A stretch of DNA of 42,043 nucleotides from an uncultured Clostridia bacterium (GCA_947628885.1 CANRBO010000001.1:1-42043), one strand, 5' to 3'. Positions 40,137 to 40,312 are shown, counted from the first letter of the stretch. Numbers and translations are program-made. The notes: generated by a model not told the origin, from the sequence alone.

Positions 40137-40165
40137 TTGCACGAAAAATGGTAAACTGCTATACT
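40137..40165 (+). promoter_or_regulatory. Candidate promoter for the leader/pilin-like cassette 2
   Basis: TTGCAC-17 nt-TATACT, about 25 nt upstream of the leader SD. Confidence 0.35.
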
Positions 40166-40201
40166 ATAAATGTAAGAATTAAAGAACAAAGGATAATTGA
40201 G

Positions 40202-40261
40202 ATGAGCAAAATTGCTGAAAGCCTTGATACTGTATATATATATATATATCGCGGGCTATAA
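40202..40261 (+). CDS. Leader mini-ORF MSKIAESLDTV(YI)2YRGL containing the (TA)n microsatellite
   Basis: The SD AAAGGA lies 8 nt before the ATG. There are 19 codons. The N-terminus is homologous to the mini-ORF at 2076-2141. Confidence 0.35.
   Translation: MSKIAESLDTVYIYIYRGL
40233..40249. repeat. (TA)8.5 dinucleotide microsatellite
   Basis: Read directly: tatatatatatatatat. Confidence 0.95.
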
Positions 40262-40282
40262 TTTCATAAGTCATTTATATCG

Positions 40283-40312
40283 GCATAAGGCTATTTTTAC
40301 CTATGCATTTTT
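40283..40312 (+). terminator. Terminator-like hairpin between the leader ORF and pilin-like gene 2
   Basis: gcataagg-ctattttta-cctatgc (7 bp with one bulge), followed by aTTTTTg. Confidence 0.35.

Follow-up and report, generated by a model that had tools for sequence, protein, structure and literature searches.

Architecture of the leader upstream of pilin-like gene 2

The sequence under study is a 42,043-nucleotide (nt) stretch of DNA from an uncultured Clostridia bacterium (GCA_947628885.1 CANRBO010000001.1:1-42043), referred to below as the window, by which the whole stretch is always meant. At 40137-40421 on the plus strand, a leader that we call cassette 2 precedes a gene for a pilin-like protein (pilin-like gene 2). 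In this leader, a promoter-like sequence, a Shine-Dalgarno (SD) site, a short open reading frame (mini-ORF) containing a TA microsatellite, and a hairpin with a U-rich tail follow one another (Table 1). An initial annotation of the locus had described the SD-led mini-ORF with its (TA)8.5 tract, and both were found again by direct reading and with Tandem Repeats Finder (TRF). The mini-ORF consists of 19 codons (MSKIAESLDTV-YIYIY-RGL-stop), with its ATG at 40202. The start of pilin-like gene 2 was assigned to 40422 and not to the upstream ATG at 40386, the database representative being the form of 394 amino acids (aa).

The -35-like hexamer TTGCAC (40142 being its last position, 40137 its first) and the TG-extended -10 hexamer TATACT (40160-40165) are separated by a spacer of 17 nt, and similar boxes (TTGCAA, TTGACT or TTGACA, with a TATAAT-like hexamer) are found at the equivalent place in homologous leaders. 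The upstream neighbour is PcrA/UvrD, encoded on the minus strand across a divergent intergenic region; therefore, no transcription is read in from upstream, and the hairpin cannot be assigned to an upstream gene as its terminator.

A microsatellite scan with generous thresholds (mononucleotide runs of at least 9 nt, dinucleotide tracts of at least 6 units, and so on) gave only two tracts in the whole window, namely (TA)8.5 and the (CA)13.5 described below. For a TA run of 17 nt, the expected number of occurrences is 0.0006 in a first-order Markov model and 0.01 in shuffled sequences, which excludes chance as its origin.

Predicted terminator hairpin and reading frames of cassette 2

Folding of the segment 40280-40360 gave -27.9 kcal/mol (z = -7.3), and none of 200 shuffled sequences was equally stable. 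The structure is a two-tier hairpin of 60 nt (40287-40346; free energy, dG, of -24 to -28 kcal/mol), with an outer stem formed by AAGGCUAUUUUU and AAAAAUAGUCUU and an inner stem formed by AUGCAUUUUUG and CAAAAAUGUAU, and it is followed by the U-tract CTTTTTGTTGTTT (tail also given as CUUUUUGUUGUUU). The smaller hairpin gcataagg/cctatgc that had been annotated initially could not be upheld, since those bases belong to the left arm of the 60-nt hairpin. The two-tier arrangement is retained in the homologous leader L038, in which both arms have changed. When the leader was compared with Rfam, nothing was found at gathering thresholds, and the sub-threshold matches (also at E <= 1) were microRNA-like hairpins over the terminator only; neither a riboswitch nor another curated cis-regulatory RNA was matched.

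The three frames that follow the repeat end at very different places with respect to this hairpin. In the assembled frame, the stop codon lies at 40259-40261, 25 nt 5' of the hairpin. With one TA unit less, the mini-ORF continues as RAIIS and meets its stop codon at 40267-40269, 17 nt 5' of the main stem. With one unit more, it continues as AGYNF...LFVV, with 35 codons open through the entire hairpin, and terminates at the TAA codon 40356-40358 in the U-tract, 12 nt beyond the hairpin end. Both shifts agree with what had been predicted for the gain and the loss of one unit. The long frame ends 64 nt 5' of the ATG of the pilin gene, with the terminator in between, and it is the predicted ON frame of cassette 2.

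A paralogous cassette in the same window

A second leader, cassette 1, lies on the minus strand upstream of pilin-like gene 1. The two pilin-like genes are paralogous (25% identity between their products, best at the N-terminus), and the leaders share both their architecture and an exact 11-mer, TGAAAGCCTTG, located at 2120-2130 on the minus strand in cassette 1 and followed in both cases by 5 nt, GTA and the repeat. The paralogy of the cassettes and their common DNA core, both proposed from the first inspection of the sequence, are thus borne out. Two frames of cassette 1 end 5 and 10 nt past the repeat, and one ends inside the terminator stem (2043-2004); both cassettes are assembled in a short frame.

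Further matches to the core in the window (exact at 9716-9726, with one mismatch at 3918-3928) fall in a large ORF or in an intergenic region without a repeat, and were taken as chance. Hairpins with the palindromic centre GGRAGCTTCC follow both pilin-like genes (41663-41692 on the plus strand and about 600-640 on the minus strand); they are probably the terminators of these genes, inherited from the duplication.

Table 1. Positions of the elements of cassettes 2 and 1 and of the genes behind them in the window.
Feature	Position	Strand	Basis or remark
Cassette 2, predicted sigma-A promoter (TTGCAC, 17 nt, TGc-TATACT)	40137-40165	+	direct reading
Cassette 2, Shine-Dalgarno site AAAGGA of the mini-ORF	40188-40193	+	8 nt 5' of the ATG
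Cassette 2, leader mini-ORF as assembled, MSKIAESLDTVYIYIYRGL-stop	40202-40261	+	short frame, predicted OFF
Conserved 11-nt core TGAAAGCCTTG	40216-40226	+	common to cassette 1 and at least 120 metagenome leaders
(TA)8.5 microsatellite, predicted slippage site	40233-40249	+	perfect tract (TRF)
Post-repeat segment of cassette 2, three frames	40250-40358	+	two short stops, one open frame
Cassette 2, predicted intrinsic terminator (attenuator), 60-nt hairpin and U-rich tail	40287-40356	+	folding, z = -7.3
Pilin-like gene 2 (394 aa), predicted to be controlled by cassette 2	40422-41606	+	
Cassette 1, mini-ORF MKKLESLARV(HT)4QIV-stop	2076-2141	-	assembled in short frame
(CA)13.5 inside the cassette 1 mini-ORF	2086-2112	-	TRF
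Cassette 1, predicted intrinsic terminator, 18-bp stem and T-run	2004-2043	-	
Pilin-like gene 1 (406 aa, DUF6273)	645-1865	-	paralogue of gene 2

The leader family in genomes and metagenomes

Further copies of the leader, which the initial annotation had recommended searching for, were abundant. In a set of 80 related genomic loci plus the window, containing 97 pilin-like genes, a dinucleotide tract of at least 6 units was present within 450 nt upstream of 13 of these genes. This upstream zone makes up 8.7% of the bases, yet holds 13 of the 16 such tracts (binomial p = 7e-12). The layout of the genome leaders is constant: a promoter, an SD site, the mini-ORF, the repeat, a strong terminator and, after 60-250 nt, the SD site of the gene itself. 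The mini-ORF peptides follow the pattern M..K..E-S/T-L/V-x-A-V, and nearly all have an SD sequence (GGAG/AGGA) 5-12 nt 5' of the ATG. The repeats on the sense strand are TA, AC or AG, none of which creates a stop codon in any frame. No leader cassette was present in the homologues P0042 and P0008, both represented on multiple contigs and serving as leaderless controls, nor in the closest homologues, L001 and L081.

Metagenome contigs were scanned with the pattern TGAAAGCCTTG-N5-GTA(YA)4, which matched at least 120 stretches, 80 of which were listed. Among the matches listed, 64 leaders could be analysed, of which 38 were of type A (a separate mini-ORF and a terminator, with dG typically of -16 to -30 kcal/mol), 16 of type B (leader and repeat in frame with the pilin-like gene, upstream of a G/ITLIAL motif) and 10 unclear. 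Like cassette 2, the 13 genome leaders and the 38 metagenome leaders of type A contain an SD-led short ORF with a repeat unit not divisible by 3.

The relation between frames and hairpin seen in cassette 2 holds throughout the family, as initially supposed. Of the 12 genome leaders for which a terminator was identified, each has exactly one frame that enters it, and the two remaining frames end upstream of the core stem, 8-48 nt before the hairpin as delimited automatically. A single hairpin-entering frame was likewise found in 37 of the 38 type A metagenome leaders. In the latter, the long frame usually stops 26-30 nt inside a hairpin that measures about 45 nt, and the short frames stop at a median of 29 nt upstream. 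When the segments between the elements were shuffled, this frame rule appeared with a frequency of 0.12-0.50 per leader, giving a joint value of about 3e-4 for 7 roughly independent groups. As assembled, 26 type A leaders are in a short (OFF) and 10 in a long (ON) frame, near the unbiased ratio of 2:1. In the TA-type subfamily, 20 terminators share a common hairpin, with compensatory changes in 6 of 18 pairs.

The core TGAAAGCCTTG is read in another frame in L082 and L066, so that the peptide alone does not account for its conservation; this might reflect recombination or mobility, or a function of the RNA.

Type B loci include L066 (2796-2971) and the 16 metagenome loci, such as L135, L141, L144 and L168, and have a leader of the form M..ESL.AV. 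In these, slippage would switch translation directly, the residues encoded by the repeat lying in the part of the protein presumed to be cleaved off.

Most genes behind the leaders encode pilin-like proteins; the others encode a SipW-like signal peptidase together with a TasA-like protein, or membrane-anchored proteins of very large size. Recurrence of the repeat as TA, AC and AG in front of pilin-like and other surface-protein genes supports the early proposal that the repeat itself is the selected feature. The cassette in front of genes for a SipW-like signal peptidase and a secreted protein resembling TasA was observed in L114 (7931-9345), L124, L134, L140, L161, L169, L171 and L176; in this L114 group, 6 of 8 assemblies are in the long, predicted ON frame.

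Natural variation of repeat length

Repeat length varies at orthologous loci, from (AG)2 to at least 13 units and from (TA)9 to (TA)11. At the AG locus, an identical 413-aa protein (P0140) is preceded by (AG)2 (decayed), by 6, 7, 7 and 9 units, and by a tract of at least 13 units that begins its contig; a protein of the same 90% cluster has (AG)8 in L046. Apart from the tract, the flanks of these alleles are near-identical. The (AG)7 and (AG)2 alleles give a 50-52-aa ORF that ends inside the terminator, whereas (AG)6, (AG)9 and (AG)8 give the two short ORFs. At the TA locus, an identical 391-aa protein (P0138) is found behind (TA)9, which is the long frame, and behind (TA)10, which is a short one; (TA)11, also in a short frame, precedes a protein of the same 90% cluster. 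All three repeat phases are therefore represented among the alleles at orthologous loci. At the AC locus, the tracts measure 13, 19, 25, 31 and 31 nt in five independent assemblies, all in the long frame. These tracts differ only in steps of 6 nt (three units), which points to the frame and not the length as the selected property.

For the window itself, an exact look-up of pilin-like protein 2 with either start codon returned no record, and pilin-like protein 1 is a singleton cluster; as a consequence, polymorphism at the window locus is judged only against L003 and L100, which are about 90% identical and have the same synteny with PcrA. At the orthologous site, these have (TA)7 followed by TTATATT, in a short frame, in place of (TA)8.5.

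It might be argued that the tracts play no part in regulation and are neutral microsatellites or artefacts of assembly, considering that repeats are poorly handled by short-read assemblies and that several contigs break inside the tract. The enrichment in front of one gene class (p = 7e-12), the location of both window microsatellites in homologous leaders, the identity of the flanks across samples in which the number of units differs, and the conserved frame architecture all speak against this explanation, which we regard as highly improbable.

The same alleles bear on the idea that repeat length rather than frame is sensed, either through the spacing or structure between core and terminator (an RNA antiterminator) or through self-pairing of (UA)n. 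In fact, AGCCUU in the core of cassette 2 has its complement, AAGGCU, in the left terminator arm, AAAGCC in cassette 1 and in several TA-type leaders has its complement, GGCUUU, in the right arm, and conservation of the core nucleotides extends to leaders in which its frame differs (L082, L066). The complementary partner, however, changes arms and is missing in other subfamilies, such as the L114 group, and a conserved pairing between core and terminator was rejected as a general feature for this reason. Moreover, AC and AG tracts are unable to self-pair, one AC locus tolerates 13 to 31 nt in steps of 6 nt only, and the (AG)2 allele retains the long frame. Sensing of length is therefore very unlikely.

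A third possibility is that the repeat tunes the spacer of a promoter, as in the hif system, between a -35 hexamer TTGATA (40224-40229) and a -10 hexamer TATAAT (40257-40262). Most leaders do contain TTG-containing hexamers before the repeat and AT-rich, -10-like hexamers after it. Nevertheless, the spacer measures 27 nt in cassette 2 and 23-38 nt in the relatives, as compared to the 16-18 nt needed by a sigma-70-type promoter, and the natural alleles are nowhere near a 17-nt spacer. In each leader, a proper promoter is predicted 5' of the mini-ORF, and the AT-rich hexamers correspond to the stop codons in which both short frames end. This model was rejected on spacer length, and we give it almost no credence.

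Proposed switch mechanism

We consider it likely that cassettes 2 and 1 are slipped-strand phase-variation switches that act through leader-peptide transcription attenuation. A constitutive promoter would initiate the leader transcript, and ribosomes would translate the short SD-led mini-ORF holding the dinucleotide repeat. By gain or loss of repeat units through slippage in replication, the mini-ORF would cycle through three frames. In two of them, the ribosome would halt 17-25 nt before the strong intrinsic terminator, so that the hairpin could form and most transcripts would end before the gene (OFF or low). In the third, the ribosome would move into or through the hairpin and block it, and RNA polymerase would continue into the gene (ON). 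Cassette 2 would accordingly be a three-phase switch, ON at (TA)9.5, (TA)12.5 and so on, with two OFF or low frames, and it would currently be OFF. The anatomy of the leaders, their recurrence, the frame rule and the natural variation of repeat length are observed directly; from these sequences we infer that the mini-ORF is translated, that the hairpin terminates transcription and that read-through and expression depend on the frame. Translation of the mini-ORF is supported indirectly by the near-universal SD sites and by the AC tract lengths, which vary in frame-preserving 6-nt steps. With further copies, length polymorphism and this indirect support for translation, none of the three conditions named at the outset as refuting the initial reading applies.

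An explanation close to this one is that the repeat is hypermutable and selected, but acts by a route other than ribosome-mediated antitermination, the alternative leader peptides or mini-ORF lengths altering, for example, messenger RNA stability or access of Rho, or acting in trans, with the hairpin as a constitutive attenuator or a processing site. Polymorphism and enrichment, indeed, show selection for mutability and not the downstream mechanism, and the long-frame peptides of related leaders are alike (AGYNFI.HLYRHKAIFTYAFL as compared to TGFNLIKNLYKYKTIFSCAFL). This likeness is explained by the identity of about 75% between the leaders at the DNA level; leaders of different subfamilies have unrelated long-frame peptides, whose stops nonetheless always lie inside the hairpin. 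In addition, the proven precedent in Streptococcus gallolyticus is a case of antitermination. For these reasons, we hold such a route to be unlikely, and leader-peptide attenuation remains the preferred reading.

Several observations weigh against attenuation as the switch. The promoter of cassette 2, initially annotated as TTGCAC-17-TATACT, stands insofar as its boxes are readable and recur in homologous leaders, but the -35 hexamer matches the consensus at only 3 of 6 positions and the consensus scan did not list the promoter. The same scan found a second promoter-like site 3' of the terminator (40354-40381), and an allele of a related gene has no leader at all (L103 as compared to L018); together, these make basal, terminator-independent expression plausible. 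The stop of the frame with one unit less is only 11 nt from the extended stem, and this frame could be partly ON. The frame rule is not rare in shuffled versions of a single leader (0.1-0.5) and is significant for the ensemble only, in which many leaders are kin to each other. All sequences of the family are assembly consensuses of uncultured organisms, known from sequence alone. Finally, the RNA polymerase of Bacillus subtilis outruns the ribosome, which could weaken the coupling between ribosome and terminator; the streptococcal precedent argues that such coupling can still work in Firmicutes.

Gain, loss and possible spread of the cassette

Comparison of related loci revealed differences in the presence of the cassette and in the gene that follows it. 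The window segment 40137-40421 and L100 2213-2500 contain leaders that are about 97% identical up to the SD site of the downstream gene, and the genes behind the conserved leader differ, their products measuring 394 aa (window), 370 aa (L100) and 371 aa (L003). Between the window and L100, the gene has thus been swapped behind a conserved switch. Alignment of L018 1-138 with L103 1-534 (96.8% identity, spanning 67 nt upstream of the gene into RecJ) showed an (AC)17 cassette in one strain and none in the others; the locus is polymorphic for insertion or deletion of the cassette.

L100 (4330-4560) and L003 (4830-5060) have a second copy of this leader about 2 kb downstream of the cassette 2 leader, with (TA)8 followed by TTATATT in the long frame. 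The second copy lacks a promoter, borders on its left on a 5' fragment of pilin gene 2 in inverted orientation, and is followed by a Bro-N gene. In the window, a short inverted repeat (AAGAACAAA/TTTGTTCTT, at 40183-40191 and 40362-40370) flanks the cassette 2 leader. The second leader copy and this flanking repeat suggest past rearrangements at the cassette boundaries. A small hairpin, GTCTTTTTCAAAAGAC, is present at 40388-40403, immediately 5' of the SD site of the pilin gene, and is kept in L003 and L100.

Presence and absence at the L018/L103 locus, the swapped gene behind the nearly identical leader of L100 and the operons of SipW/TasA type are the basis for a tentative evolutionary reading. 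According to it, a modular cassette (promoter, mini-ORF with core, repeat and terminator) may have derived from a repeat in the cleaved N-terminal leader of pilin-like proteins, and recombination may then have carried it to sites upstream of many unrelated genes for surface proteins in uncultured gut Clostridia. We think this possible, though on balance not the expected history.

Proteins predicted to be controlled, retroelement link and genomic context

Pilin-like protein 2 has more than 3450 homologues, all unnamed. Its N-terminus reads MKNLKRNVNG/ITLIALVVTIIILLILAG. The Pfam profile N_methyl (GFxxxE model) scored 16.5 bits, below the cut-off of 21.2, on a G/ITLIA motif with Ala at +5 and no Glu. 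Given this sub-threshold score and the missing Glu at +5, the protein does not pass as having a type IV pilin class III signal, and "pilin-like" denotes resemblance only. NCBIfam gave zero matches for the pilin-like protein, and none of the folds in the PDB matched its AlphaFold2 model (pLDDT 80) at E <= 0.001. DUF6273 on paralogue 1, a marginal match just above the cut-off, is the only assignment obtained for the C-terminal domain.

The C-terminal domain of pilin-like gene 2 contains a GC-rich stretch (41412-41519) that resembles the variable region (VR) of a diversity-generating retroelement (DGR), with flanks that match the template repeat (TR) of L082 at 86-90%. The homologue in L082 (67% identical) is a DGR target: its VR (2494-2612) and TR (3548-3666) differ mostly at adenines of the TR (A-to-N), and bAvd and an RVT_1 reverse transcriptase follow. 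The L082 gene itself has a (TA)10.5 leader. No DGR template repeat or reverse transcriptase was found within the 42-kb window. Judging from these sequences, the predicted switch would control hypervariable proteins of the DGR type.

The window belongs to the chromosome of a spore-forming member of the Clostridia with low GC content (29%); it encodes SpoIIE, MecA, RadC-MreBCD-PBP2-MinC and AcpS, and its closest relatives are metagenome-assembled genomes from rabbit and human gut labelled 'uncultured Clostridia bacterium'. A 184-nt inverted repeat (88% complementary; 2742-2925 and 29422-29605, with a partial copy at 2985-3034) encloses about 26 kb, mostly giant surface-protein ORFs (1211-1711 aa; SdrD_B, DUF11). 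The repeat unit has GC-rich stems and no Rfam family match, and it could be a substrate for recombination or inversion, or a repeated regulatory element. A 214-aa ORF at 29677-30321 on the plus strand consists mostly of AAT/AAC (Asn) codons in imperfect 9-15-nt repeats and has no Pfam match.

Comparison with known systems

In Clostridioides difficile, also a member of the Clostridia, the surface protein CwpV is encoded behind a phase-variable 5' leader with a terminator in the OFF state. The cwpV gene is switched by RecV-dependent site-specific inversion of DNA, whereas the switching proposed here would occur by repeat slippage and translation. The hifA/hifB genes of Haemophilus influenzae have a (TA)n tract upstream of a fimbrial (pilin) gene, where slippage also gives ON and OFF states; in that system the tract is the spacer between -35 and -10, whereas here it lies in a leader ORF predicted to be transcribed and translated, and the flanking hexamers are 27 nt apart. 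With the attenuators of trp, his and pheA, the leaders share the principle that the position of a ribosome on a short leader ORF would decide on the formation of the terminator. Those operons depend on physiological stalling at codons for scarce amino acids and on an antiterminator hairpin, whereas the signal here would be genetic, the frame being set by the repeat, and no conserved antiterminator was found in the leaders of the family.

The closest parallel is the phase variation of the pil1 and pil3 pili of S. gallolyticus, for which an attenuation-like mechanism was shown experimentally (Danne et al., 2014; PMC3894217). GCAGA repeats in the leader ORF (13-26 units, differing between strains) set the position of its stop codon: expression is low when this stop lies 39-49 bp before the terminator and high when it lies 4 bp before the hairpin or inside it, an effect that is abolished by chloramphenicol and hence depends on translation (PMC3894217). 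The present leaders are alike in having an SD-led leader ORF with a repeat unit that is not a multiple of 3, a predicted intrinsic terminator and a surface-fibre gene, preceded by a promoter-like sequence. Here too, in a gut-associated Firmicute, repeat number varies, slippage would move the leader stop relative to the hairpin, and a ribosome in the hairpin would permit read-through. They differ in the repeat, which is a dinucleotide (TA, AC or AG, 6-25 units) and not the pentanucleotide GCAGA, and in having one ON and two OFF frames as compared to one low and two high frames. Instead of sortase pili, the genes encode pilin-like proteins with a hydrophobic N-terminal helix (some of them DGR targets), SipW/TasA-like operons and other surface proteins, and the leaders, known here by their sequences, form a family that is large and multi-copy and has an in-frame sister form. 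Judged by repeat unit and leader peptide only, no homology to the pil1/pil3 leaders is apparent, and the relation is one of analogy, not of membership by descent.

The in-frame sister form (type B, M..ESL.AV(HT)n), to which the window cassettes do not belong, resembles instead the CTCTT repeats of Neisseria opa, the poly-G tract of pilC and that of a Bifidobacterium breve pilus (PMC9187656), where the repeat lies in the 5' coding or signal-peptide region. Full-text literature searches found the principle of a repeat acting through leader peptide and terminator for S. gallolyticus only, and nothing on this Clostridial family. On the reading proposed here, the family is a non-homologous, widespread variant of the S. 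gallolyticus-type switch, with an in-frame sister form and a link to DGR-targeted genes.

Implications

If the proposed mechanism is correct, abundant uncultured gut Clostridia would share a common, independently evolved device controlling a very large and unnamed family of pilin-like proteins. Its state could be called from metagenome sequence, since repeat length modulo 3 units relative to the terminator would tell ON from OFF, and this would provide a means to track selection on surface structures in vivo. The same arrangement would offer a compact and portable stochastic switch for synthetic biology in Gram-positive bacteria. Where the controlled gene is also a DGR target, two independent stochastic layers would act on one surface protein, slippage setting it ON or OFF and retro-mutagenesis changing its ligand specificity.

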